Of a stretch of DNA of 64,000 nucleotides, positions 1,052-60,378 are shown in pieces (position 1 is the first letter of the stretch; every line of letters starts with the position of its first letter). The DNA comes from Caulobacteraceae bacterium (GTDB lineage Bacteria; Pseudomonadota; Alphaproteobacteria; Caulobacterales; Caulobacteraceae), in contig JBIIZD010000002.1 of the NCBI GenBank assembly GCA_044346445.1, positions 549 through 64,548 of the forward strand, in the 5' to 3' direction. Under the pieces are notes generated by a model. It was given only the letters and a program-made list of their open reading frames with translations. It searched no databases and was not told the DNA's origin. The translations under genes and the position numbers were made by a program.

Positions 1052-1600
1052 CTAAGGAACCTTTATCACCTCGACCTGATCAAGGGTTAGCTTGTTAGGT
1101 CCAGTCCTTGGCTCATTATACCCGTCAATGGCTAACCTCGCCCATCCGGCAAGATTGTCGATGACGACCTTATCTTCTGGAGTTTTCATGAAAATGGACA
1201 GGGTGTTATGTTTAGAGCAATCATAGTCTCTCGTTTTCTTTGTGCAGGCTGTGTGTATTATTCCCAGCGCGATAATACGGCCGTTCGGCTCTAGAACGGC
1301 GGCACCTTTCTCGAAACAACTATGATGCCGACAGGCCGTGAAGCGATAACGACTTCCAATGCGCGTCACATCATCCGAGGGTCCGCCAAGCACTTCCATG
1401 AGTTGAACGGCGACCGTAGCGTCCCAACCCAAATAATCGGCCTGACGAGTTCCGACGAACCTGTTTAGGGCCCTTTGGAAGGGTTTATCCCAGACCAACT
1501 GATTGGCACCTGAGCAGGCTTCTAATCGGTGCAGCGTACAGCCCGCTATATCCGCCTGTGCGGTCGCCATCATGGACATGGCTGCGAGCAAAGCGATCAT
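1052..1600 (-). CDS. hypothetical exported Cys-containing protein
   Basis: 182-aa ORF with an N-terminal signal peptide (MIALLAAMSMMATAQA) and 7 Cys in the mature part. The region is visibly lower in GC than its neighbours. No family recognised. Confidence 0.5.
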   Translation of the reverse strand: MIALLAAMSMMATAQADIAGCTLHRLEACSGANQLVWDKPFQRALNRFVGTRQADYLGWDATVAVQLMEVLGGPSDDVTRIGSRYRFTACRHHSCFEKGAAVLEPNGRIIALGIIHTACTKKTRDYDCSKHNTLSIFMKTPEDKVVIDNLAGWARLAIDGYNEPRTGPNKLTLDQVEVIKVP

Positions 1601-1735
1601 AAGCAGAATACCTTAACCCCGATTGATGGTTTAGGATATACTCTATCTGCTGTGCCTCAAAAAGAAAACATTAACCTATGATGGAATGGCCGGGTGAGTT
1701 TCCTGTCCAGATCAGCCTAAAACGCTCCCCTCACC

Positions 1736-4504
1736 CTAAACCAGCGACCCGTGACAGTGCTTGAACTTTTTGCCGGAGCCGCAGGGGCAGGGGCTGTTGC
1801 GGGCGGTGCGTTCCCAGCCGGTGGGCAGGGCGCTCATCGGCAGGGCGGCGCGCTGTTCAGGCGTCAGGCCGTCTGGGATGACGCCGCCAAAGCGTTCGTT
1901 CTCGCCGGTCTCGGGGTTCATATGCACCTCGATCAGGCCAGCCGAGGGTGGCTTGGCCGGAGCGGGGTCCTGATACTGGAACTCGACCGTCATCAGCCAA
2001 CGCGTCGTATTCATGCGCAGATCGCCGAGCAGTTTTTCAAACAGCGAGAAGGCTTCGGTCTTGTATTCGTTCAAGGGATCGCGCTGACCATAGCCGCGCA
2101 GGCCGATCACATTGCGCAAATGATCCAGATGCATCAGGTGCTCGCGCCATTGCAAATCGATCATCTGGAGCAGGAAGTTCTTTTCCAGACCGCGCATCTG
2201 CTCATCGCCAATCTGGCTCAAGCGTTCGGCGGCGCGGGTATCGGCGGCGGCCTGGATGCGGGCCAGCATTTCCTCATTGGCAATGCCGTCCTCGGCTGCC
2301 CAGTCGCGCAGTGGCAGGCTGAGGCCCAGTATGGTCTCGATCCGCTCTTCCAGCCCATCAATGTCCCATTTTTCGGCATAGGCCTTGGGCGGCAGGTGGC
2401 GATAGACCAGGTCCTCAATGGTGTCGTGACGCATTTCGGTGATGATGTCCGAAAGGTCGGTCGCCTCCATGAATTCCTGGCGTTGCTCGAACACGGCCTT
2501 GCGCTGGTCATTGACCACATCATCGTATTTGAGCAGGTTTTTGCGGATTTCGAAATTGCGCTGCTCGACGCGGCGCTGGGCCGTGGCAATGGCGCTATTG
2601 AGCCATTTATGGGTAATGGCCTCGCCTTCCTGAACGCCAAAGGTGCGCATGATGGAATCGAGCCGCTCGCCAGCAAAGATGCGCAACAGGTCGTCTTCGC
2701 AAGACAGGAAGAATTTGGACGTACCAGGGTCGCCCTGACGGCCGGTACGGCCGCGCAGCTGGTTATCAATGCGGCGGCTCTCGTGCCGCTCGGTGCCCAG
2801 AACGAACAGACCGCCTGCGGCCAAGGCCTTTTCGCGGCGATCGGCAATATCGGCCTCGATAATCTTGGATTGTTCGGCTTCCAGCTCTGGCGTGACCTCA
2901 ATGCCCATGCCGCGCTGCTGCTGACGCCAGGCGGTCATGCGCATGTCCAGATTGCCGCCGAGCTGAATATCGGTGCCGCGGCCAGCCATATTGGTGGCAA
3001 TGGTCACAGAGCCGGGCGAGCCGGCATCGGCAACGATCAGGGCCTCTTGCTCGTGATAACGCGCATTGAGCACATTGTGCGGAATCCCGTTCAGGGTCTT
3101 GCCGTCCAGCTCAAACTTGTGAAGCTTTAAAAGCTCCGACAGGGTTTCGGACTTTTCGATGGATACTGTACCCACCAGAACCGGCTGGCCTCGGCGATAA
3201 CAGTCCTCGATCTGGAGCAGGATGGAGGCGTTCTTTTCGCGCTCTGTGCGATAGACCTCGTCGTCAATATCAATCCGGCAGACAGGTCGGTTGGTCGGGA
3301 TCTCGGTCACTTCCATCTTATAGATGTCGTGGAATTCCGAGGCCTCGGTCGCGGCCGTGCCCGTCATGCCGGAAAGCTTGGAATAGAGGCGGAAATAGTT
3401 CTGGATGGTCACAGAGGCCAGGGTCTGGTTCTCGGGCTGGATGTCCGCGCCTTCCTTGGCCTCGATGGCCTGGTGCAGACCTTCGGAAAGCCGCCGACCC
3501 GTCATCATGCGACCGGTAAATTCGTCGATCAGGATCACCTCGCCGCCCTTGACGATATAATCCTTGTCGCGCTGATAAAGCTTGTTGGCGCGCATGGCCT
3601 GATTGATGTGGTGCACGGCCGAAATATTGGCCGGGTCATACAGGCCCGCTGAATCCTCGACCAGATGGCCAGCATCCATCAGCATTTGCTCGACCTTTTC
3701 CGAACCGTATTCGGTCAGAAGGATCTGGCGCTGCTTTTCGTCCAGATCAAAGGTTTCTTCGTCTTTCAGCATCTCCTTCACCACACCATCAATGATGCGA
3801 TAGAATTCAGAGCGATCCTCGGTCGGGCCGGAAATGATCAAGGGGGTGCGGGCCTCGTCGATCAAGATGGAGTCCACCTCATCGACGATACAGAAGTGAT
3901 GGCCGCGCTGGACCATTTCCTCGGTCGTATAGACCAGATTGTCGCGCAGATAGTCGAAGCCGAACTCGTTATTGGTGCCATAGGTGATGTCGCTGCGATA
4001 GGCGCGCTGGCGATCGCCCTGGCTTAGGCCATTGACGATCACACCGACCGACAGGCCCAAGAACTTATAGACCTTGCCCATCCATTCGGAGTCGCGCGCG
4101 GCCAGATAGTCATTGACCGTGATGACGTGCACGCCCTTGCCGGACAGGGCGTTGAGATAGGTTGGGGCCGTGGCGACCAGGGTCTTGCCCTCGCCGGTGC
4201 GCATTTCGGAAATGCCGCCCTGGTGCAAGACCATGCCGCCGACCAACTGGACATCATAGTGGCGCTGCCCCAGTGTGCGGCGAGACGCCTCGCGCACGGC
4301 GGCAAAGGCCTCGTTCATAATGTCATCAAGCGTCGCGCCCTTGGCCAGGCGGTCCTTGAATTCCTGGGTCTTGCCGCGCAGGGCCTCATCGCTCAAGGCC
4401 ATATAGGCTGGCTCAAGGGCGTTGATGAGCAGGGCACGGGCCCGGAAGGACTTGACCGTGCGGTCATTGGGAGAGCCGAAAAGCTTTTTAGCGAAGCCGA
4501 GCAT
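1736..4504 (-). CDS. secA: preprotein translocase ATPase SecA
   Basis: 922 aa. It carries DEAD-like motor motifs ([40 protein letters not shown]) and the C-terminal zinc-binding tail [14 protein letters not shown]. Confidence 0.97.
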
Positions 4505-4716
4505 GAACTGGTCCGATGGTCGCGAGGAAAGCGCACGGGGGAGGCCGTGACGCCCTTAGGTCTAGCATGTTAAGCTCCGCAGCCTTAACGCCTGATAATC
4601 CGGACACCGGACCATGGGCGAAAAACTCCTCGACTTGCACGCGCGCGAGACTTAAGCACCGACCTTGTTCGTGTCAACGTAACGGCTTTTTCTTTTCCTG
4701 ACGGGAGTCTGGTCTG

Positions 4717-5700
4717 ATGCGCCCCAGCCAAGGTTTCGGCCTTACCAAATTCCTTTGTCTGGGCGCGGTTTTACTGGCCTTGAGCGCTTGCGGGCCCGGC
4801 AAGATTGATGACAAGCCGCCAGAGCGCGGCGATGTGGCTGCGGCCCGGGTTGGTAACCAGACCATCTGGGCTTCCGACGTCAAGCGTGAAGCCATCTCTC
4901 AAGGCCTGATCGGCCAGGGCGAGCCCTTGGACATCTCGTCTGACCTGTTTCGGCGGGTGCTGGACGAGGTGATCGACCAAAAACTGCTGGCGGCCGAGGC
5001 GCGCAAGCGCAAGCTCGATACCAGTCCCTTGGCCCAGCGGCGGTTGGCCGCAGCCCAAGAGCGGGTGCTCGGCGATCTGTTGGTCGAGCAATCGGTCGAA
5101 AAGGCGGTCAATGAAAGCGCGATCCGCTCGCTCTATCAAGACCAACTCAAACAGGCCCGCCAGTCCGAAGAATTCCGCGCCCGCCAGATTGTCGTGGCCA
5201 GCCAGGCTGAGGCTGAGTCTGTGCGCAAATTACTCGCCGCCGGGGCCTCGTTCGAAGCCTTGGCCATGGAGCGCTCGATTGATTCGGCGACGCGCTTTAA
5301 TGGCGGCGATCTGGGGTATTTTACCGCTGACGTCATGCCAGAAGTCTATGTCACAGCCTTGAAATCGGCCACTTCTGGTGCGGTTGTTGGGCCGATCAAG
5401 ACCGATACCGGTTATGCGGTGCTGAAGGTGGAGGACCGTCGCCCCGAAGAGCCGATCACGCTTGAGGCGGCCCGCCCGCAGATTGTGCGCTTCCTGACCT
5501 ATGATCAGGTCCGCGAATTGCTGGAGAGTCTGCGCAAGAGTGCCAAGATCCAGACCCTGATCGGCCCACCCCTCGATGTGCCAGGCGCGCCGTCTGAACC
5601 GGCCTCAGCCCCGCCAGAGGCCCCAGCGACCGCGCCCGCGCCAGTGCCCGCGCCAGTGCCCGCGCCCGCGCCAGCCGCCAAGCCGGGCAAACCCTCATGA
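4717..5700 (+). CDS. parvulin-type peptidyl-prolyl cis-trans isomerase (SurA/PpiD-like), lipoprotein-like N-terminus, Pro/Ala-rich tail
   Basis: Signal/lipobox LLALSAC. Parvulin core FRARQIVV...GGDLGYF...GYAVLKVEDRR. C-terminal APAPVPAPVPAPAPAA tail encoded by short tandem DNA repeats. Confidence 0.85.
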   Translation: MRPSQGFGLTKFLCLGAVLLALSACGPGKIDDKPPERGDVAAARVGNQTIWASDVKREAISQGLIGQGEPLDISSDLFRRVLDEVIDQKLLAAEARKRKLDTSPLAQRRLAAAQERVLGDLLVEQSVEKAVNESAIRSLYQDQLKQARQSEEFRARQIVVASQAEAESVRKLLAAGASFEALAMERSIDSATRFNGGDLGYFTADVMPEVYVTALKSATSGAVVGPIKTDTGYAVLKVEDRRPEEPITLEAARPQIVRFLTYDQVRELLESLRKSAKIQTLIGPPLDVPGAPSEPASAPPEAPATAPAPVPAPVPAPAPAAKPGKPS

Positions 5701-7028
5701 GCGGGGTCTTTGTCCTACAAAGGTTTTTGGATGGTGCAGCGCGGCTCTTGAGTCCGGTGCGAGCCAGTGATGGGCCGGGCAAGCCGGGCCTGTTGGTCTC
5801 GCCCCTGGCTGTGCCGTTTCCGAACATACTGCCAATCGAAGGCGTTGAGATCGCGATTGGCCGGGCGGGTTATTATAAACATCAGCGCGATGACGTCCTG
5901 GTCATGCGCTTTGCTGAAGGCACGACCTGCGCCGGTGTGTTTACCCGTCATGCGGTGGGCTCGGCACCGGTGGACTGGTGCAAGCGCCAGCTTGAGGCCT
6001 CGGGCGGCGAGGATATCCGCGCCCTGGTGGTCAATGCCGGCTGTGCCAATGCCTTTACCGGCAAGCCAGGTGCCGATGCGGCCCGGCGCGTGGCCTCGGC
6101 CGTAGCAAAGCGGCTGGATATTCGCCAGCGCGATATCATGCTGGCCTCGACAGGGGTGATCGGGGTGGTGCTGGACGATGCCAAGCTCACCGCCCGCCTG
6201 CCAGAGCTTGAGGCCGAACTGGACGGCGGGCAAAGGACCTGGGCCAATGCGGCCCAGGCGATCATGACCACCGACACCTTTGCCAAGGGCGCTTTTGCCA
6301 CGGCCATGATCGAGGGCGTGCCCGTGCGCATCGCCGGGATCACCAAGGGCTCTGGCATGATTGCGCCGGACATGGCCACCATGCTGGCCTTTATTGCCAC
6401 CGATGCCGCCATAGCGCCCGCCGCCCTGCAGGCCCTGGTCAGCCTCTATACCCGCACCACCTTTAACGGGGTTACGGTCGATGGGGATACCTCGACCAAT
6501 GATACCTGCCTGCTGTTTGCCACGGGCAAGGCCGGTGCGCCCAGGATTGCCCGGGCCGGGGATCGCAGACTGGCCGATTTTCGCGAAAAGCTGGAACAGG
6601 TCATGCTCGATCTGGCGCTGCAACTCGTGCGCGACGGCGAGGGGGCCAGCAAGTTTGTCAAGATCACGGTCAATGGCGCCCAGTCGCCCGCCTCGGCGCG
6701 CAAGATTGCCAAGACGGTGGCCGAATCGCCCCTGGTCAAGACCGCCTTTGCCGGAGAAGACGCCAATTGGGGCCGGATTGTCATGGCCGTTGGCCGCGCC
6801 GATGAGCCAATCAATCGCGCGCGTCTGGGCATAAGGTTTGGCGATCTGATTGCTGCGGTCGATGGCGCGGTCTCGCCCGGCTATGACGAGGCGGCCATGA
6901 GCGCCTATATGAAAAACGCCGAGCTCGAGGTCAGTGTCGATGTCGGGGTCGGCCGGTCCAGCGCCTCGGTCTGGACCTGTGACCTGACCAAGCGGTATAT
7001 CGAGATCAATGGCGATTACAGAAGCTAA
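5697..7028 (+). CDS. argJ: bifunctional glutamate N-acetyltransferase / amino-acid acetyltransferase ArgJ
   Basis: Motifs ITKGSGMIAPDMATML (autoprocessing T) and DGDTSTNDT, ending YIEINGDYRS. The ATG overlaps the upstream stop (ATGA). The true start could be slightly downstream, since the first ~30 aa are not family-like. Confidence 0.9.
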   Translation: MSGVFVLQRFLDGAARLLSPVRASDGPGKPGLLVSPLAVPFPNILPIEGVEIAIGRAGYYKHQRDDVLVMRFAEGTTCAGVFTRHAVGSAPVDWCKRQLEASGGEDIRALVVNAGCANAFTGKPGADAARRVASAVAKRLDIRQRDIMLASTGVIGVVLDDAKLTARLPELEAELDGGQRTWANAAQAIMTTDTFAKGAFATAMIEGVPVRIAGITKGSGMIAPDMATMLAFIATDAAIAPAALQALVSLYTRTTFNGVTVDGDTSTNDTCLLFATGKAGAPRIARAGDRRLADFREKLEQVMLDLALQLVRDGEGASKFVKITVNGAQSPASARKIAKTVAESPLVKTAFAGEDANWGRIVMAVGRADEPINRARLGIRFGDLIAAVDGAVSPGYDEAAMSAYMKNAELEVSVDVGVGRSSASVWTCDLTKRYIEINGDYRS

Positions 7029-7434
7029 GCCCGCCCTGCCTTTGGTTCTGGTCGTGGCCTGCGCCCTGGTCGATACAGACGGCCGGGTGCTGATCTGCAA
7101 GCGCCCCGAAGGCAAGGCGCTAGCGGGCCTTTGGGAATTTCCCGGCGGCAAGGTCGAGCCGGGCGAGGGGCCAGAAGCGGCCCTGATCCGCGAAATGCAC
7201 GAAGAACTGGGCATTACGATTACCGCCAGTTGCCTGGCCCCATTCGTATTTGCCTCACACAGCTATGAGACCTTTCACCTTCTGATGCCGCTTTATCTGT
7301 GTCGGCGCTGGGAGGGGGTGGTGGTGGCCAAGGAACATGCGGCGCTCGCCTGGGTCAAACCCAACGCCCTCAGCACCTATGCCATGCCCCCCGCAGACGC
7401 GCCACTGGTCGCCTATCTGCGCGATTTTTTGTAG
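7009..7434 (+). CDS. mutT: NUDIX hydrolase, MutT-like 8-oxo-dGTP diphosphatase
   Basis: Nudix box GLWEFPGGKVEPGEGPEAALIREMHEELGI. 141 aa. Overlaps the argJ 3' end by 20 nt. Confidence 0.85.
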   Translation: MAITEAKPALPLVLVVACALVDTDGRVLICKRPEGKALAGLWEFPGGKVEPGEGPEAALIREMHEELGITITASCLAPFVFASHSYETFHLLMPLYLCRRWEGVVVAKEHAALAWVKPNALSTYAMPPADAPLVAYLRDFL

Positions 7435-7455
7435 ATTACTGAGGCTCAGGGGGTC

Positions 7456-7692
7456 TTGCTCGCTCCCAAGCCAGTTCAAGCCTGCGCCGTGCTGGAGGCC
7501 TGGTGGCGAGACCATAACGCACTGCAGCCACACTCGAAGCTCGGCTGGATGACACCGAGGGCCTATGCCAGCGCCTTATCCGCACAAACCCGCGACCGCG
7601 CTGCGCAGCCTAGAGGTGCCGCTGGGACGCCTCTTGCCAAACACACCAATGAAGGGTCAACTTACGGTAGGGCTCTCGTTGTGGTGGGGTGA
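7456..7692 (+). pseudogene. IS3-family transposase (OrfB / rve integrase core) C-terminal remnant
   Basis: The only recognisable part is ..VLEAWWRDHNALQPHSKLGWMTPRAYA.., matching the W..YN..RPHS.LG..TP..(F/Y) tail of DDE rve transposases. The catalytic core is missing, and the fragment begins right after the mutT stop. Confidence 0.6.
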
Positions 7693-7723
7693 GATATGGG
7701 GGTCAGGTCAATTGGTGCCAGAT
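7691..7723. repeat. left inverted repeat of the retron cassette (IS-end-like GGGGGTCAGGTCA)
   Basis: gagatatgggggtcaggtcaattggtgccagat aligns with the reverse complement of 9803-9835 (gagtttcagggggtcatgtcaatggtcgcagct). About 26 of 34 positions match with 2 single-nt indels. A third partial copy, gggggtgacgtca, lies at 7728-7740. Confidence 0.6.
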
Positions 7724-7796
7724 TTTTGGGGGTGACGTCACACGGCAGCCTCCGTTGCTCGGTCCTATTACTCCGCTTTAGTCTGTACAAACTTAG

Positions 7797-9569
7797 TTAG
7801 TTTGGCGGACTATAATGCTCGAGAACCGCGTTGATGCTTTCCAGAATGGGGGCGAACCCAGTCCAGTTCAAACTGGCAGCCTCCGGACGAATTATCCTCT
7901 CAGCGAAAATATGTTTTCCAAACTCTTTCGTTATATCGAGTTTATTTGGGTTGAATGTTTTTCCATTCAATTGTTTTACCCGTATCGCATGATCGAACAT
8001 GTCTTCAATGCAGGTTTTGATTTGTTTTCCAACATGTGGGGTCTTCACCACATAGAGGTTGTCAGTAATGTGGTAAAAATTCTCTTTCGATTCAACAGTG
8101 ATGTTTTTTTTATAATTTTCTTTAATGCAAAGAAATAGTTTCGTTGCTCCGTCGTCATTGTCGAGAAGAATTATAACTGGGTGCAGCTGTGGCCTGTGAC
8201 CAAACCCGAGCATGTGCTTATTATAGTCCTTTATGAGAGATTTAAAGTTTCCAGAGCCGCCATTTAACTCTAGGACGGAGCGGGTTTTATTATGATGATT
8301 AAATAATCGGAGCTTATTAACAAAACCATCTGACGTCATATACCCGAGTTTTGGTTGAAATTCAGGAGAGTATTTTATAGCAAGAGATAAATAAACATTG
8401 TCAGTTTTTCCTTCAGTAATTATTAGTGGTTTATCCAGTGTGACAAAATTTTTGTAAAATAGGAATTTGAAGTAGAGATTTCGAAATGCTGTCTTTAATT
8501 TCCGTTTTTTAATTTCATCGCGTGGATCGATCTCATTTTTAACATAGTGAATGTGGGCTAGCCTGCCTGTTAGGGGACCAAGAGATTTTGTAAGAGACTT
8601 ATGCGACAGGGAGGTAGTAGCTATTTCAGGCACCATCTCAACTGCCTCAGATTTCGTAACAACCTCCACGGCTGGTTTCAACAAAGCTCGCGGATGATCA
8701 ATCCAGTATTCCCCCCTCTTGAACAACGCATCGCACATCGCTCGCGTAAAGCGGTAATAATCGGACTGGACATTGACCTTCTGATTGACCGTCAAACCAG
8801 TAACGATCTTGCGAGACATCCCACATTGCATGCGGGTTTTTTCCGGTTTCACGGTAAAATAAGTATCTTTTATCCGCTTAGCTAAATCTGGGCCGAGGTC
8901 CCACTTTCCCGCTACAATCGGATCCTGAATTGCTACCGCTTCGGGGAACGTTTTTTGGTTGGTCGAGAAGGTGATATCGTCCGCATAGCGTGAATATGTA
9001 ATCCTCTCCTTCTTCGCGAGTTGCGCCAAACGAACATCAAGCAAATGGGTGATTAGGTCTGCAATCACTGGTGAGCATGGACTGCCTTGTGGAAGCTGGT
9101 TGTCATAACATGCGATCTGAGCAATGAGCGTTGCCACCTTGTCATTCAATGCGAACGCTCTGTTTTTTATAAAAAATCCCCGCACCCGCCCGAAATTGAA
9201 AGTCGGGAAAAAATCTTTTAGGTCTAGATTGAAGACGTAACGCCTACGCTGATGCGGCTTGGCATTGGTTACTATTGAGTGACCACGACGAAACCCGTGT
9301 GACAACGAAGCGAGACCGCTCTCTCTGTCGATCTCCGCGCGACACGCGTAGAGAAGATTAGCTAGGCGTCGTTGTAATAGTTTCAATTGAGCGGTCGGGG
9401 CGCATATGTCTCGTACACCGCCGTTTTTTTTAGGGATTTGGAAGCGTTCGTACTTTTCGGACGGATCAAGCTTGTAAAGGATGAATGCGAGTGCATCCGG
9501 CCTGTACCCGAGTAAGGCCGATAGGTCTTTAATGTTGGTTGCTGATTTAAGTTTTTTTAGAGAGGACAC
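7797..9569 (-). CDS. retron-type reverse transcriptase fused to a C-terminal Toprim domain (Ec67 / Retron-Eco2-like architecture)
   Basis: 590 aa with a GTG start. RT motifs: NAKPH (aa 102-106), LDLKDFFPTF, LPQGSPCSP, YADD (aa 195-198) and the retron-typical RKIVTGLTVN (VTG, aa 256-258). The C-terminal part has LIITEGKTD (E386) and ILLDNDDG (aa 470-473), the Toprim E and DxD signatures. Confidence 0.88.
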   Translation of the reverse strand: MSSLKKLKSATNIKDLSALLGYRPDALAFILYKLDPSEKYERFQIPKKNGGVRDICAPTAQLKLLQRRLANLLYACRAEIDRESGLASLSHGFRRGHSIVTNAKPHQRRRYVFNLDLKDFFPTFNFGRVRGFFIKNRAFALNDKVATLIAQIACYDNQLPQGSPCSPVIADLITHLLDVRLAQLAKKERITYSRYADDITFSTNQKTFPEAVAIQDPIVAGKWDLGPDLAKRIKDTYFTVKPEKTRMQCGMSRKIVTGLTVNQKVNVQSDYYRFTRAMCDALFKRGEYWIDHPRALLKPAVEVVTKSEAVEMVPEIATTSLSHKSLTKSLGPLTGRLAHIHYVKNEIDPRDEIKKRKLKTAFRNLYFKFLFYKNFVTLDKPLIITEGKTDNVYLSLAIKYSPEFQPKLGYMTSDGFVNKLRLFNHHNKTRSVLELNGGSGNFKSLIKDYNKHMLGFGHRPQLHPVIILLDNDDGATKLFLCIKENYKKNITVESKENFYHITDNLYVVKTPHVGKQIKTCIEDMFDHAIRVKQLNGKTFNPNKLDITKEFGKHIFAERIIRPEAASLNWTGFAPILESINAVLEHYSPPN

Positions 9570-9591
9570 GGAGTTGGTGCCTTACTTTGCA

Positions 9592-9731
9592 TGGCTTACA
9601 GGCACTCCTACGCGATCATCGAACCATTCGACTGTAATCGGTCAAACGGCAATAAGGGTCATCGGGAAGCAACGACTACTGGCATCGCTTCATATGTCGC
9701 GAAGCGCGACAACAAATCTGCCTGTAAGCCA
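9592..9731 (-). ncRNA. candidate retron msr-msd non-coding RNA (a1/a2-flanked)
   Basis: A perfect 13-bp inverted repeat, tggcttacaggca (9592-9604) / tgcctgtaagcca (9719-9731), encloses 114 nt and ends 22 nt upstream of the RT start on the same strand. A G (9718) follows a1 directly. Two hairpins in the 5' half (9696-9710 and 9666-9691) pair fully only in the minus-strand RNA, through G-U pairs. Confidence 0.65.
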
Positions 9732-9737
9732 CACCAC

Positions 9738-9766
9738 TCACTACGAAACCAAAAGTTATTTTACAA
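9738..9766 (-). promoter_or_regulatory. candidate promoter for the retron transcript
   Basis: On the minus strand: TTGTAA (9766-9761), a 17-nt spacer, then TAGTGA (9743-9738). This would place the TSS at about 9731, the first base of a1. The -10 is weak. An alternative -10, TAAAAT, sits at 9763-9758. Hexamer matching only. Confidence 0.3.
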
Positions 9767-9802
9767 GCTTTAGTTTAAGAGAGAAATGCGGGGGGCGGGA
9801 AC

Positions 9803-9835
9803 AGCTGCGACCATTGACATGACCCCCTGAAACTC
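9803..9835. repeat. right inverted repeat of the retron cassette (IS-end-like TGACATGACCCCC)
   Basis: See 7691-7723. Read on the + strand, TGACATGACCCCCTGAAAC looks like the outer end of an IS3-family element. Confidence 0.6.
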
Positions 9836-9873
9836 ATCCTAAATGCTCTTCAGTCCGCTCCAAGGGGCCGCCC

Positions 9874-11502
9874 CTACAGCTTCTCGCGCTTTAACTTGAT
9901 GCCGGCGGCTTCGCGGTCCCAGGTGTCGGGGGTGATGGCGTCCTTGCGCAGCTTGGCCTTGATGACCTTGGCGGTGGGGGTCTTGGGCAGTTCGTCGAGT
10001 ATGCGGATATAGCGCGGGACCATGAAATAGGGCAGGCGGCCTTCTAGAAAGCTGATCAGCTCAGCCTTGTCGATACTGCGGCCTGGCACCGGCGCGATCA
10101 CGGCCATGACCTCGTCTTCGGAATAGGCGCTTGGCACGCCGATCACGGCGGCTTCGCGCACATCGGGATGGGCGACAATATCGTTCTCGACCTCAAAGGA
10201 TGAGATGTTTTCGCCGCGGCGGCGGATGGCGTCTTTTACCCGGTCGACAAAGTAATAATAGCCGTCCTCGTCGCGCTTAAAGGCGTCGCCGGTGTGGAAC
10301 CAGCCATTGCGCCAGGCCTTGGCCGTGGCCTCTGGATTATTGTGATAGCCGCTATTCATGGCAAAGGGCCGGTCGGTGCGCACCAGCATTTCGCCAACCG
10401 CGCCGATGGCAACCTCGCAGTCATTTTCATCGACCAGCCGCACATCCACGCCGCGCCGCACCGTGCCGCAAGTGCCCGGTTTGACCGGATTGGGATCAGA
10501 CACAATCGGAGACGAGATCTCGGTCATGTTGAAAATCGTATAAATATCAATGCCAAACCGGTCATGGAACGGGCCAGACACCTCGGTCAGGGGCACCATG
10601 AGGGCTGTGCGCACCTTGTGGGCGCGGTCGGCGTCGCTGGGCGGGTTCTTGATCAGGAAGGTGGCCATGACGCCCAGAAGGAAGATCGAGGTGCACTCGG
10701 TCTTGCGCACAAAATCCCAGAAGGTATCGGTCGAGAAATTCTCCATCAGGGCAATTGATCCGCCCCTTGCCAGCATCACAAAGGGCAGGCCCAGCCCGCC
10801 AATATGGAAGATGGGCATATTGACCAAGAACCGGTCTTCGCCGGTGATAAACGGCCAGCTATCGGGGCCTGCATTGGTATAGAGGTGCAGATAGGACGAC
10901 AAGACGCCCTTGGATGGTCCGGTCGTGCCCGAGGTATAGATCACCGACTGGGTGTCCCAAGGCTCGATAGGCCGGGCCAGCGGCGCAAGCTCGTCCTCGG
11001 TGCCAGTCAGGCTTTCAAACGCGCTGGCGCTAAACCGCGCCGGGGCCTGGCCATCGCCCAGCACCACCACATGACGCACGGCGGCGGCATCAGCATCCTC
11101 CAGACGCTCCAATAGGCCCGCATGCGCAATCAGCAGGCGGGCATCGGAATTTTTGAGCACATGCTCCAGGATCGCGCCGCGATAGGCCGTGTTAAACGGC
11201 ACAAACACCGCGCCCAGATAATTGATCGCATAAAAGGTCAATAAGGCCTGGTGGCAATTGGGCAGCCATACCGCGACATGATCGCCCTGTTTGACGCCAA
11301 GCTTTTGCAGGCCAACGGCCACGGCAATGGTTTGGGTTCTAAGCTGGCTATAGGTCCAGTGACTGCCATCCTCGAACACGGCATAGACCTGATCGCCGCG
11401 CTCCTGGTCCATCCTGTCCATCAGGTCGCGCAGCACGCAGACCGCGCGGTTAGGCACGCGATGGTCGCCATGCTTGGCATTGGAGAGGGTAGTGGATGTC
11501 AT
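9874..11502 (-). CDS. AMP-dependent acyl-CoA synthetase/ligase
   Basis: 542 aa. AMP-binding motifs IYTSGTTGPSKGV, GWFHTGD and the C-terminal PKTPTAKVIK. Confidence 0.9.
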   Translation of the reverse strand: MTSTTLSNAKHGDHRVPNRAVCVLRDLMDRMDQERGDQVYAVFEDGSHWTYSQLRTQTIAVAVGLQKLGVKQGDHVAVWLPNCHQALLTFYAINYLGAVFVPFNTAYRGAILEHVLKNSDARLLIAHAGLLERLEDADAAAVRHVVVLGDGQAPARFSASAFESLTGTEDELAPLARPIEPWDTQSVIYTSGTTGPSKGVLSSYLHLYTNAGPDSWPFITGEDRFLVNMPIFHIGGLGLPFVMLARGGSIALMENFSTDTFWDFVRKTECTSIFLLGVMATFLIKNPPSDADRAHKVRTALMVPLTEVSGPFHDRFGIDIYTIFNMTEISSPIVSDPNPVKPGTCGTVRRGVDVRLVDENDCEVAIGAVGEMLVRTDRPFAMNSGYHNNPEATAKAWRNGWFHTGDAFKRDEDGYYYFVDRVKDAIRRRGENISSFEVENDIVAHPDVREAAVIGVPSAYSEDEVMAVIAPVPGRSIDKAELISFLEGRLPYFMVPRYIRILDELPKTPTAKVIKAKLRKDAITPDTWDREAAGIKLKREKL

Positions 11503-11617
11503 GGCTGCGCCCCATATTAGCAGTCGGGTAGAAAAATCTACTAGGCCAAGGGCAGCCTACTGTCTTAGCACTGGCGCGGCAATGGTGCGGGCGGATGCGC
11601 GTGCAGATTTGTCGGGT

Positions 11618-12298
11618 CTAGTTGCGTGCGCGCAGCGTAATCTTCATGACCATATGGATGGCATCCATCACCACCTCGGTCGCTGACCAGCGCCCGCCCT
11701 CGTGATACCAGTTGGCAATCCAGCTGAGCAGGCCGCTGATCCAGATCGCGGCGCGCGAGGCGTCTTCAAACTCAAACTCGCCCGCAGCCTTGCCCTTTTG
11801 CAAAAGGGTGCTGAGCTTTTGATCAAATTGGTGACGCAGCAGGCGGATACGCCGGGCCTCATCAGGCTCCAGGCTCATTTCTTCGCGCTGATAGACGCTG
11901 ATATAGCGCTGGTTTTCGATAATGATCCGCGCCACCCGCTCAACCACCATTTTCAACTGCTCGGTCGCCGTGCCGTCAACGGCCAAGGCATCTTCCAGCG
12001 CGCTGAGCGATAGCTGAATGCCGGTCTGGCAGATCTCGAACAATAGCTCGCTCTTATTGCGATAATAGGAATAGATGAAGGGCTTGGTGACCTGGAGTTG
12101 CTCGGCAACGGCGTCCAGGGTCGTGGCCTCATAGCCGTGTTTGAAGAACAGAAGGCTGGCTTCTTCGACAATGCGCCGACGCTTATAGGCGGCAATCTCG
12201 TTCTTGAGCGGTGCGGTCTGTCGCTTGGCCGCCTTGGCATCGATCATGGATTTAGGTTCCGCAAGAAAGGCGTGAGCCACCCGATTAGGTTGCCTCAC
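11618..12298 (-). CDS. TetR family transcriptional regulator
   Basis: N-terminal HTH (RRRIVEEASLLFFKHGYEATTLDAVAEQLQVTKPFIYSYYRNK). The start may instead be the internal Met at about 12247. Confidence 0.85.
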   Translation of the reverse strand: MRQPNRVAHAFLAEPKSMIDAKAAKRQTAPLKNEIAAYKRRRIVEEASLLFFKHGYEATTLDAVAEQLQVTKPFIYSYYRNKSELLFEICQTGIQLSLSALEDALAVDGTATEQLKMVVERVARIIIENQRYISVYQREEMSLEPDEARRIRLLRHQFDQKLSTLLQKGKAAGEFEFEDASRAAIWISGLLSWIANWYHEGGRWSATEVVMDAIHMVMKITLRARN

Positions 12299-54408: not shown

Positions 54409-54501
54409 GATCGGCAAAGGCTCAATCCACGCTCAGGCAATCTGGTTTGTCTACAAGCTGACGAACCTTATGAAGCGCGGCCTCGACACGCTCAAGCCCT
54501 T

Positions 54502-54597
54502 CACCCTCCGCCGCCTTCCCCCGCGAAGGCGGGGAGCCAGAAGATAGGTTACTGGGCTTGCGAAACGGTCTGGGCCCCGGCCTTGGCGGGGGGGTGA
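54502..54597. repeat. single palindromic REP/MITE-like unit, inverted relative to the 59.9-60.4 kb array
   Basis: caccctccgccgccttcccccgcgaaggcggggagccag ... cgaaacggtctgggccccggccttggcggggggg. It shares the ccccgcgaaggcgggg hairpin and the cccagaccgtttcg segment (here reverse-complemented) with the array units. Confidence 0.7.
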
Positions 54598-59881: not shown

Positions 59882-60378
59882 CACCCCTCCGTTTTCCCCG
59901 CGAAGGCGGGGACCCAGACCGTTTCGCACAGCCTGTGATCCACACACTGGATCCCCGCCTACGCGGGGAAGGAGGGGGAGGGAGTGGGACATTCTGGTGC
60001 TTCGATTGGCTCAGGACAGCAAGGCGCGAACCTCTCACCCCTTCCGTTTTCCCCGCGAAGGCGGGGACCCAGACCGTTTCGCACAGCCTGTGATCCACAC
60101 GCTGGATACCCGCCTGCGCGGGGAAGGCGGAGGGGGAGTGGGACATTCTGGTGCTTCGATTGGCTCAGGATAGCAAGGCGCGAACCTCCCGCCCCTCCGT
60201 TTTCCCCGCGAAGGCGGGGACCCAGACCGTTTCGCACAGCCTGTGATCCATCATCTGGATCCCCGCCTGCACGGGGAAAGAGGGGGAGGGGGCAGGTTGG
60301 TATGCCGGTGCTTCGACAGGCGCTGCATGGGAACTAAGCAGCCCCCGCCCCTTCCGCCTGCGCGGCGAAGGCGGGGGC
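59882..60378. repeat. tandem array of three ~154-bp palindromic REP/MITE-like units plus a terminal GC hairpin
   Basis: Units span 59882-60035, 60036-60189 and 60190-~60340 (the third has a diverged 3' part). Each contains ccccgcgaaggcgggg and its near-inverse ccccgcct(a/g)cgcgggg as the cores of ~35-nt inverted arms. A terminal hairpin lies at 60341-60378. Confidence 0.9.

Follow-up and report, generated by a model that had tools for sequence, protein, structure and literature searches.

Apparent remnants of an IS3-family insertion sequence bound a strain-variable slot occupied by a type I-C retron in a Caulobacteraceae bacterium

Introduction

Chromosomal hotspots and "minimal mobile elements" (MMEs) are exchanged by homologous recombination between the conserved genes that flank them, as in the defence hotspots of Escherichia coli and Pseudomonas aeruginosa and the MMEs of Neisseria. 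In the present study, we analyzed a comparable locus of a Caulobacteraceae bacterium (assembly GCA_044346445.1, contig JBIIZD010000002.1, positions 549 to 64,548 of the forward strand), in which a retron of the Ec67 (Eco2) family lies between a mutT-like gene and an acyl-CoA ligase gene; the whole stretch of 64,000 nt is called the window below. The closest described retron is Eco2 (Ec67), a type I-C1 retron of E. coli. The Toprim motifs EGxxD and DxD define retron subtypes I-C1 and I-C3 (PMC7736814). In Eco2, a scaffold of multicopy single-stranded DNA (msDNA) cages Toprim nucleases, and phage-induced decay of the msDNA frees the nucleases, whereupon tRNAs are cut (PMC12916289).

The retron is bracketed by repeats that a first-pass annotation, made from the window sequence, had attributed to termini of the IS407 group of IS3-family insertion sequences (IS). 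ISPmar2 of Paracoccus marcusii is one element of this group, and IS511 of Caulobacter is another. Most IS407-group elements produce a 4-bp target duplication (PMC3281130).

Results

Alternative cargo between mutT and the ligase gene

The space between the two core genes, here called the slot, carries an IS piece at each edge. The features that define it are as follows.

7009..7434, + strand: mutT-like NUDIX gene, left core flank of the slot (Pfam NUDIX_4, 4e-28).
7477..7692, + strand: dead C-terminal tail of an IS3-family orfB transposase, about 70 codons and a stop (rve_3, tblastn, phmmer).
7691..7710, + strand: right inverted repeat (IRR), GAGATATGGGGGTCAGGTCA, with its tip at 7710 pointing into the cargo.
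9815..9866, + strand: left inverted repeat (IRL) and 5' leader, the first ~52 nt of the same IS (the stub), with its tip at 9815 pointing into the cargo.
9874..11502, - strand: acyl-CoA ligase gene, convergent with mutT, right core flank (AMP-binding, 4.8e-61; NF004808, 508 bits, under its cut-off).

The cargo between the two tips (7711-9814, 2104 nt) carries a single gene (7797-9569, - strand). It begins with ATTG and ends with CCAT, which agreed with the first-pass observation that there was no target-site duplication. Its G+C content was 0.446, and those of the flanks were 0.63 and 0.60. In successive segments of 300 nt, the G+C content was 0.60-0.65 up to 7749, 0.34-0.50 over 7750-9849, and 0.63 from 9850. 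The fall in G+C content that had been placed between the mutT and ligase stop codons was therefore real, but it started at about 7750 and not at the mutT stop (7434), and the IS tail (7436-7710) had a host-like composition.

We compared the slot with lake-metagenome contigs retrieved by the identical MutT protein and by neighbouring proteins; all comparison sequences in this study were metagenome contigs. The identical 141-aa MutT was found on 22 contigs with differing downstream cargo. Five cargo sets occurred between mutT and the ligase gene in strains with the identical MutT, namely the retron, TIR, SoFic, a RES pair, and DAO/TetR, together with one arrangement in which the stub tip adjoined a gatCAB region. 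The order of elements in the strains compared was as follows.

L083 (left flank 99.95% identical to the window): mutT stop; 122-nt relic of the ligase 3'-end; FAD/NAD oxidoreductase-like, 244-aa and TetR genes; 11-nt IRL fragment; stub; ligase gene.
L085/L087 (92% identical): shorter tail (without window 7477-7661) and IRR; ThsB-like TIR gene; stub and ligase relic (196 nt); SoFic; stub; ligase gene.
L090 (90% identical): full tail and IRR; HEPN/RES-NTD gene and RES gene; stub; ligase gene.
L108/L116/L117 (right flank 98.6-98.7% identical): stub tip adjoining a hairpin resembling repetitive extragenic palindromes (REP-like) and a gatCAB-to-abhydrolase block.

In every comparison, homology to the window ended at 7710/7711 (at 7435 in strains without the tail) and restarted at 9814/9815. 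Every cargo was lower in G+C content than its flanks, and neither a target duplication nor a direct repeat was found around any of the cargoes. The stub tip had six unrelated partners, the tail tip three, and a 30-nt solo IS end, described below, two. The block in L116, L117 and L108 had the order gatC-gatA-gatB, N6/N4 methyltransferase, SDR, FAD_binding_7, HTH_3, AMP-binding, and abhydrolase; this arrangement reflects a rearrangement of the chromosome that broke exactly at the IS tip, and is not a cargo.

The same truncated tail and stub were present with other cargo in L090 and L085. Because the remnants are common to lineages of 90-92% identity with other cargo, they appear to predate the cargo. 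Their presence in lineages diverged by 8-10% with different cargo means either that the cargo changed after the remnants had died or that deletion alleles spread by recombination. The terminal repeats varied among lineages about as much as the neighbouring sequence. Since the reverse transcriptase (RT) gene was not syntenic across the clade, the first-pass view of it as acquired survived the comparison. Among 80 genus-level loci retrieved with ArgJ, synteny was lost right after mutT and the ligase gene was never nearby, so that these loci could not reveal an empty site; a metagenome scan with the stub returned 2 loci.

Arrays and relics of the ligase gene

Two-cassette arrays were found with TIR followed by SoFic and with TIR followed by DAO, and units of the stub plus the ligase 3'-end were duplicated inside arrays in L085, L095 and L083. 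The 122-nt relic of L083 (6428-6549), which was called as a 29-aa open reading frame (ORF), lies 7 nt past the mutT stop, and it was also found in L084, L086, L089, L091 and L092. This relic suggests that mutT and the ligase gene were once directly convergent neighbours. The first-pass annotation had asked whether mutT abuts the ligase gene in strains without the island, and such an arrangement was seen only as this relic in L083-type strains.

The stub-plus-relic units between cassettes in L085 (196 nt, 86% identical to the window) and L095 (152 nt), the ligase relic right after the mutT stop, and the arrays would fit a Campbell-type insertion, in which one crossover between the chromosome and a circle would integrate cargo; besides the cargo, the circle would carry the IRL stub and the final 120-200 nt of the ligase gene as the shared homology. 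Each new cassette beside the ligase gene would push older ones, each with its stub-plus-relic unit, toward mutT, and the retron would be the only cassette left in this genome. We consider this route unlikely: the window has no ligase relic, so the retron itself is not tied to it, neither a circle nor a recombinase gene was seen in any cargo, the relics are unequal in length (to 9989 and to about 10012), and the tip-precise left joints are left unexplained. Domain annotation of the window and of the cargo of the other strains gave no integrase or recombinase domain in any listed cargo or flank gene. An integron-like or integrase-borne island was rejected, since a site-specific recombinase gene was found in no cargo or flank gene.

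Identity of the slot edges

The ORF right after mutT (7456-7692), which had been read as the end of an rve-type transposase, matched Pfam rve_3 over residues 7-34 (E = 6e-6; score 26.4 bits, cut-off 26.5). With the tail as query, tblastn gave C-termini of IS3-family transposases on alphaproteobacterial plasmids (35-50% identity, up to the stop codon), and one of these plasmid matches (H2) carries the annotation "IS3 family transposase". A phmmer search of 1.84 billion representatives returned 208 matches, the best at 70% identity, with homology from about residue 15 (about nt 7477); it found no full-length close relative of the transposase, all of the best representatives being fragments. These searches supported the first-pass reading of the tail. 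A nucleotide search of plasmid DNA with the IS tail and with the stub gave no match.

Both remnants read in + orientation and point their tips at the cargo, in the order orfB tail-IRR, cargo, IRL-52 nt, and have the terminal TG...CA ends (TGACATGACCCCC at 9815 and GGGGGTCAGGTCA ending at 7710). The stub runs to within 6-8 nt of the ligase stop. In the window, GGGGGTCAGGTCA (7698-7710) starts 5 nt past the stop codon of the tail. The ends of a P. marcusii element read TGACGTTGCCCCC and GGGGGCAACGTCA, its right end also beginning 5 nt past the stop codon, and an IS3 element of Acidisoma resembles it; the IRR-to-stop distance in both equals that of the window.

A live copy of the IS was found in a sample from the Joint Genome Institute (JGI). 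Contig L092 from this sample was 99.9% identical to L083 up to L083:6688, and from about L092:3960 it continued into an IS left end that reads TGACGTGACCCCCTGAAACTCGTCC...GGACAAATG, followed by an ATG and a sequence encoding MKRSRFTQEQIIGI, the start of an OrfA of the IS407 group. The reverse complement of contig L104, also from this sample, began (first 172 nt) with an orfB tail, ...LGWMTPKDYASAL...LVMAG and a stop, then GATATGGGGGTCAGGTCA, and then L083 sequence. GCTG flanked both sides of the insertion at L083:6688 (two contigs, one sample), and this 4-bp target duplication indicated that a live IS of the window-remnant type is polymorphic in the same species. The insertion lies within the oxidoreductase cargo, and only its two ends were assembled, with the orfA start and the orfB tail visible at the contig ends only; the window keeps the last ~70 codons of orfB. 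As a side observation, the oxidoreductase-like cargo gene is called at either 630 or 575 aa, depending on the contig (L083/L096 versus L084/L098), and thus has allelic or frameshift variants.

The window tail was identical to the right end of the live copy (L104) at 146 of 172 nt, and the last 18 nt of the IRR (GATATGGGGGTCAGGTCA) matched the IRR of the live copy exactly. The window stub was identical to the left end of the live copy (L092) at 44 of 53 nt, diverging where the live copy runs on into the orfA ribosome site and the window into the ligase stop. The ligase-side stub and the mutT-side tail belong to the same IS because both match the two ends of the live copy, and the two slot edges thus appear to be fossil ends of one IS3-family (IS407-group-like) IS. 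The first-pass assignment of the repeat halves to such termini was borne out by this copy from the same species with its GCTG duplication.

Two further IS-like pieces were seen near the left edge.

7711..7740, + strand: 30-nt solo IS end of a second subtype (…TTTTTGGGGGTGACGTCA), with its tip at 7740 toward the RT 3' end.
7440..7458, + strand: possible fourth IS-end relic, TGAGGCTCAGGGGGTCTTG, similar to the inner IRL in reverse complement (assigned with low confidence).

The third partial repeat copy that had been noticed at 7728-7740 (GGGGGTGACGTCA) was present and proved to be the tip of the 30-nt unit, which recurs beside the TIR gene in L085, L094 and L095 at 93-96% identity with different sequence on both sides. 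Its tip differs from the IRL tip of the live IS at 1 of 13 nt. The 113-nt spacer beside the 30-nt end in L085/L095 was rejected as an IS interior, being AT-rich and without an orfA/orfB reading (judged by eye on the alignment). The stretch 7440-7458 was 84% complementary to 9818-9836; the local alignment beat 500 of 500 shuffles in the window and was weak in L090 and L085. Only this reverse-complement match was significant: the idea that 7436-7476 directly copies positions 13-52 of the IRL was rejected (131 of 500 shuffles).

Ownership of the inverted repeats

The first-pass annotation had reported inverted repeats at 7691-7723 and 9803-9835 that matched at about 26 of 34 positions. The repeats were present, with 25 rather than 26 of the 34 aligned positions identical between 7691-7723 and the reverse complement of 9803-9835. 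Their core, GGGGGTCAKGTCA, had only two exact matches in the 64 kb, at 7698-7710 (+) and 9815-9827 (-). The match extended ~12 nt past the IS tips into the cargo (ATTGGTGCCAGAT versus ATGGTCGCAGCT). An inverted repeat that brackets the cassette and continues into it would be expected if the 2.1-kb cassette were itself a non-autonomous mobile element bounded by inverted repeats, the second of the two readings offered before. Against this, strains with other cargo (L090, L085 and L083) keep the IS parts of the arms at the same place, the tips point inward without a duplication, and the nearest retron (on contig L093) lacks such ends, its similarity being limited to window 7811-9730. The left extra 12 nt is part of the 30-nt solo end found beside the TIR gene, and the right 12 nt has no other copy. 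From the constancy of the arms and the lack of such ends in the nearest retron, the repeats belong to the flanks of the slot and not to the retron cassette, and we regard an element of this kind as very improbable. A miniature inverted-repeat transposable element (MITE)-like unit was rejected on the same grounds, and because the RT was present on one contig only in the protein collection searched.

Fossil ends as a possible docking site

The live copy raises the question of whether the fossil ends could still serve as substrates. The fossil IRR and IRL might still bind OrfAB transposase from live IS copies; cleavage at the tips and strand transfer would then delete the cargo, giving an IS-circle-like junction, and join the tips to new DNA, so that the site would act as a dock and as a rearrangement breakpoint. 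The joints lie exactly at the tips and have many unrelated partners, including the core-gene region (gatCAB...abhydrolase) of L116, L117 and L108, and the last 18 nt of the IRR are shared with the close live IS that is polymorphic in the species. Moreover, the IS3-family pathway uses abutted IRR/IRL junctions as a reactive substrate (PMC3299598, PMC3219604), and ISPmar2 of the IS407 group can insert with an adjacent deletion and without a duplication (PMC3281130). Circle capture by such a junction should, however, leave direct repeats of 3-4 bp, and neither the window nor L090 or L085 had any; the strains compared showed no empty junction; and the terminal repeats, as variable as their neighbours across lineages, gave no sign of selection for function. 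Mobilization in trans at a docking site is therefore in our view improbable. The stronger proposal, that the facing dead IS407-group ends form a standing dock at which a trans-acting transposase swaps defence cassettes, and at times entire chromosome segments, tip-precisely without a cassette-borne recombinase, seems slightly less probable again. If it were true, the dock would be an IS-derived counterpart of an integron platform.

Signs of recombination in the flanks

The flanks were compared with those of L096, a strain of the same species. In the left flank (1154-7435) there were 3 differences in 6282 nt (0.05%), none of them in the last 3.2 kb before the mutT stop, and the right flank contained the following tract.

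9815..11657, strand not applicable: recombination tract with 96 differences (5.2%) from L096 between 9819 and 11657, followed by none until 13393.

Other strains (L107, L108 and L115) had different mosaics over the ligase gene, in L107 also over the 3' part of mutT. The divergence tract on the right, the near-identity on the left and beyond the tract, and the mosaics elsewhere most likely mean that this genome gained the retron allele through homologous recombination in its flanks. In such an allele replacement, one crossover would lie near 11.66 kb, and the second at the mutT end or to the left of it. In three other lake runs, contigs covering parts of the retron cassette had a depth of 1-4 versus 8-25 for the flanks; one contig covered the retron-stub-ligase joint (9551-9915) with 7 differences, and another covered the tail, the IRR and the 30-mer (7527-7735). 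The retron allele is thus a minority variant in other lakes.

The retron protein and its RNA

The cargo of the window contains the following retron features.

7797..9569, - strand: RT-Toprim fusion protein of retron type I-C (Ec67/Eco2 family), 590 aa (NCBIfam, PADLOC and PDB match).
9592..9731, - strand: msr/msd non-coding RNA (ncRNA), directly upstream of the RT gene (a2 at 9592-9604, a1 at 9719-9731).
9735..9775, - strand: putative retron promoter region with the box AAGCTTGTAAA at 9760-9770, by likeness to L093.

The protein scored 680.3 bits with NCBIfam NF038237 ("retron Ec67 family"; cut-off 450) and 712.7 bits with PADLOC RT-Toprim_I-C, and its residues 2-587 aligned with the solved Ec67 (Eco2) protein (PDB 9i2f, E = 1.2e-113). 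The retron RT motifs NAKPH, VTG and YADD (class pattern NAxxH, VTG, YxDD) were readable in the translation. Toprim motif IV lies in ITEGKTDNVY and motif V in ILLDNDDG, aligned with TEGKTDRIY and LDNDTG of Ec67. The a1/a2 inverted repeat of the ncRNA pairs at 13 of 13 positions, with a G after a1 in the transcript, and the predicted fold had an energy of -65.4 kcal/mol (z = -5.6 versus shuffles). A Rfam scan matched no retron RNA family to the ncRNA and gave one chance ALIL match only. The nearest database relative, the retron of L093, showed 71% amino acid identity at an unrelated locus, and the part in common, which comprises the ncRNA and RT, was 68% identical at the nucleotide level. L093 has a counterpart box, AAGCTTGCAAA, upstream of its retron ncRNA, and 9735-9775 is likely to be the promoter region, although a sigma-70 consensus scan did not call a promoter there.

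These results indicated that the retron is an ordinary member of the known Ec67/Eco2 family, and it should act like Eco2. By homology, the RT would make msDNA from the upstream ncRNA, the msDNA would cage the Toprim nucleases, and phage-triggered decay of the msDNA would lead to tRNA cutting and a stop of translation.

The retron and the ligase gene are co-oriented, and terminator prediction gave none between them (9815-9873 relative to 9569-9731). Outward promoters have been reported at IS407-group ends (PMC3281130). Transcriptional read-through into the retron is possible.

Other features of the region

Left of the slot, the window contains secA, a PpiC-type rotamase gene, argJ, and then the mutT-like NUDIX gene that stops at 7434. 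Within the ligase gene, GGGGGTCTTGGGCA (window 9976-9989) resembles an IS right end and ends in CA, and the L083 relic stops exactly at window 9989; the stub and the 9976-9989 end could define a candidate 175-nt MITE-like unit. Beyond the TIR gene, L094 (1236-5739) encodes an ABC-type ATPase matching the PADLOC model mad3 and a protein of 1205 aa that contains a Peptidase_M1 domain; these may be further defence cargo of the same array. At 59.9-60.2 kb of the window (59887-60219) there are at least four degenerate copies of a REP-like GC-rich palindrome, CCCCGCCTTCCCCGCGAAGGCGGGG; a related 44-nt stretch at window 54497-54540 matched the L108 junction, and the same REP-like element is found at the L108/L116 junction.

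Discussion

For the first joining of cargo to the IS tips, three routes each fit parts of the evidence: decay of an IS-cargo-IS arrangement followed by recombination, which we judge the probable one, and the action of a transposase in trans or a Campbell-type insertion, neither of which we think likely. We therefore propose, with reasonable rather than high confidence, that the retron is the present occupant, in a lake-water Caulobacterales population, of a strain-variable cargo slot that was formed by IS-cargo-IS decay and then took part in allele shuffling by recombination. On this view, the slot would be what remains of the inside of an IS-cargo-IS arrangement after an ancient loss of the IS bodies, with an edge of ~234 nt (orfB tail and IRR) on the mutT side and the first ~52 nt (IRL and leader) on the ligase side. 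Homologous recombination within the core genes on either side would then have passed slot alleles with different cargo from strain to strain, and the retron allele of this genome would have been gained in this way, as the divergence tract indirectly shows. Of the two first-pass readings, the one that placed the cargo between two truncated IS copies was right in its geometry (right end, cargo, left end, both in + orientation), but a recent IS-mediated acquisition was not supported.

Several observations weigh against this explanation. No complete IS was found beside any cargo seen, and for this reason the IS-cargo-IS ancestor is only inferred; there was likewise no target duplication at any cargo. 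The outer IS parts are gone on both sides right beside the stop codons of intact genes, so that two tidy deletions or another route would be needed. Recombination within 30-52 nt of homology is a poor maker of tip joints with many partners, and some of the creating events may have needed transposase. The duplicated units of the stub and the ligase 3'-end in the arrays (L085, L095 and L083) suggest another insertion route. Finally, either the window or the L096 lineage may have been the recipient in the recombination event.

Compared with described systems, the retron resembles Eco2 in its single RT-Toprim protein aligned over residues 2-587, its Toprim motifs, and its upstream ncRNA with a1/a2. 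It differs in the clear divergence of its protein from that of E. coli (phmmer 384 bits) and in its freshwater Caulobacterales host. The remnants share with IS407-group elements such as ISPmar2 the termini TGAC...CCCCC / GGGGG...GTCA and an orfB tail that ends a few nt before the IRR, and the live copy has the OrfA start MKRSRFT.EQIIGI and the 4-bp duplication. In contrast, the window retains two dead pieces (~234 nt and ~52 nt), permuted with the right end first, which face each other across the cargo without a duplication.

As in a composite transposon, two copies of one IS in direct orientation enclose the cargo with their inner ends. However, the window has neither the outer ends, transposase genes and flanking duplication nor two complete IS with outward ends, it could not move as a unit, and the same remnants bracket other cargo elsewhere; a composite transposon was thus rejected. 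The IRR and IRL of one IS also face each other in the orientation of the circle junction of an IS3-family minicircle or (IS)2 intermediate, but the window has 2.1 kb of cargo in place of 3-4 bp, and both IS bodies are gone. The locus is most readily compared with the hotspots and MMEs exchanged by recombination, with which it shares fixed core flanks, alternative small cargo (mostly defence and toxin genes) between the same core genes, raised mosaic divergence of the flanks as a signal of recombination, and the lack of a cargo recombinase. Unlike these, its slot edges are exact tips of IS terminal repeats, and its arrays hold duplicated units of an IS end and a gene 3'-end.

The identity of the ligase-side stub, the strain-variable slot, the tip-exact breakpoints, the ownership of the repeats by the flanks and the probable gain of the retron allele by homologous recombination are new relative to the first-pass annotation, and the tip-bounded slot is a neat, somewhat unusual and moderately interesting hotspot architecture. 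With this retron, the Eco2 family, for which a structure has been solved, gains a diverged member of environmental origin. The locus offers a clean, natural view of the turnover of small defence and toxin systems: at least six alternative neighbours meet two fixed core genes, and the breakpoints fall on IS tips at single-nucleotide resolution. If the tips are inactive, the locus would stand as a well-resolved case of an uncultured freshwater lineage exchanging hotspot cargo by homologous recombination. Enzymatic activity at the tips would instead make dead IS ends a kind of cassette-exchange site not recognised before, and would help explain why defence genes are so often found beside IS debris.

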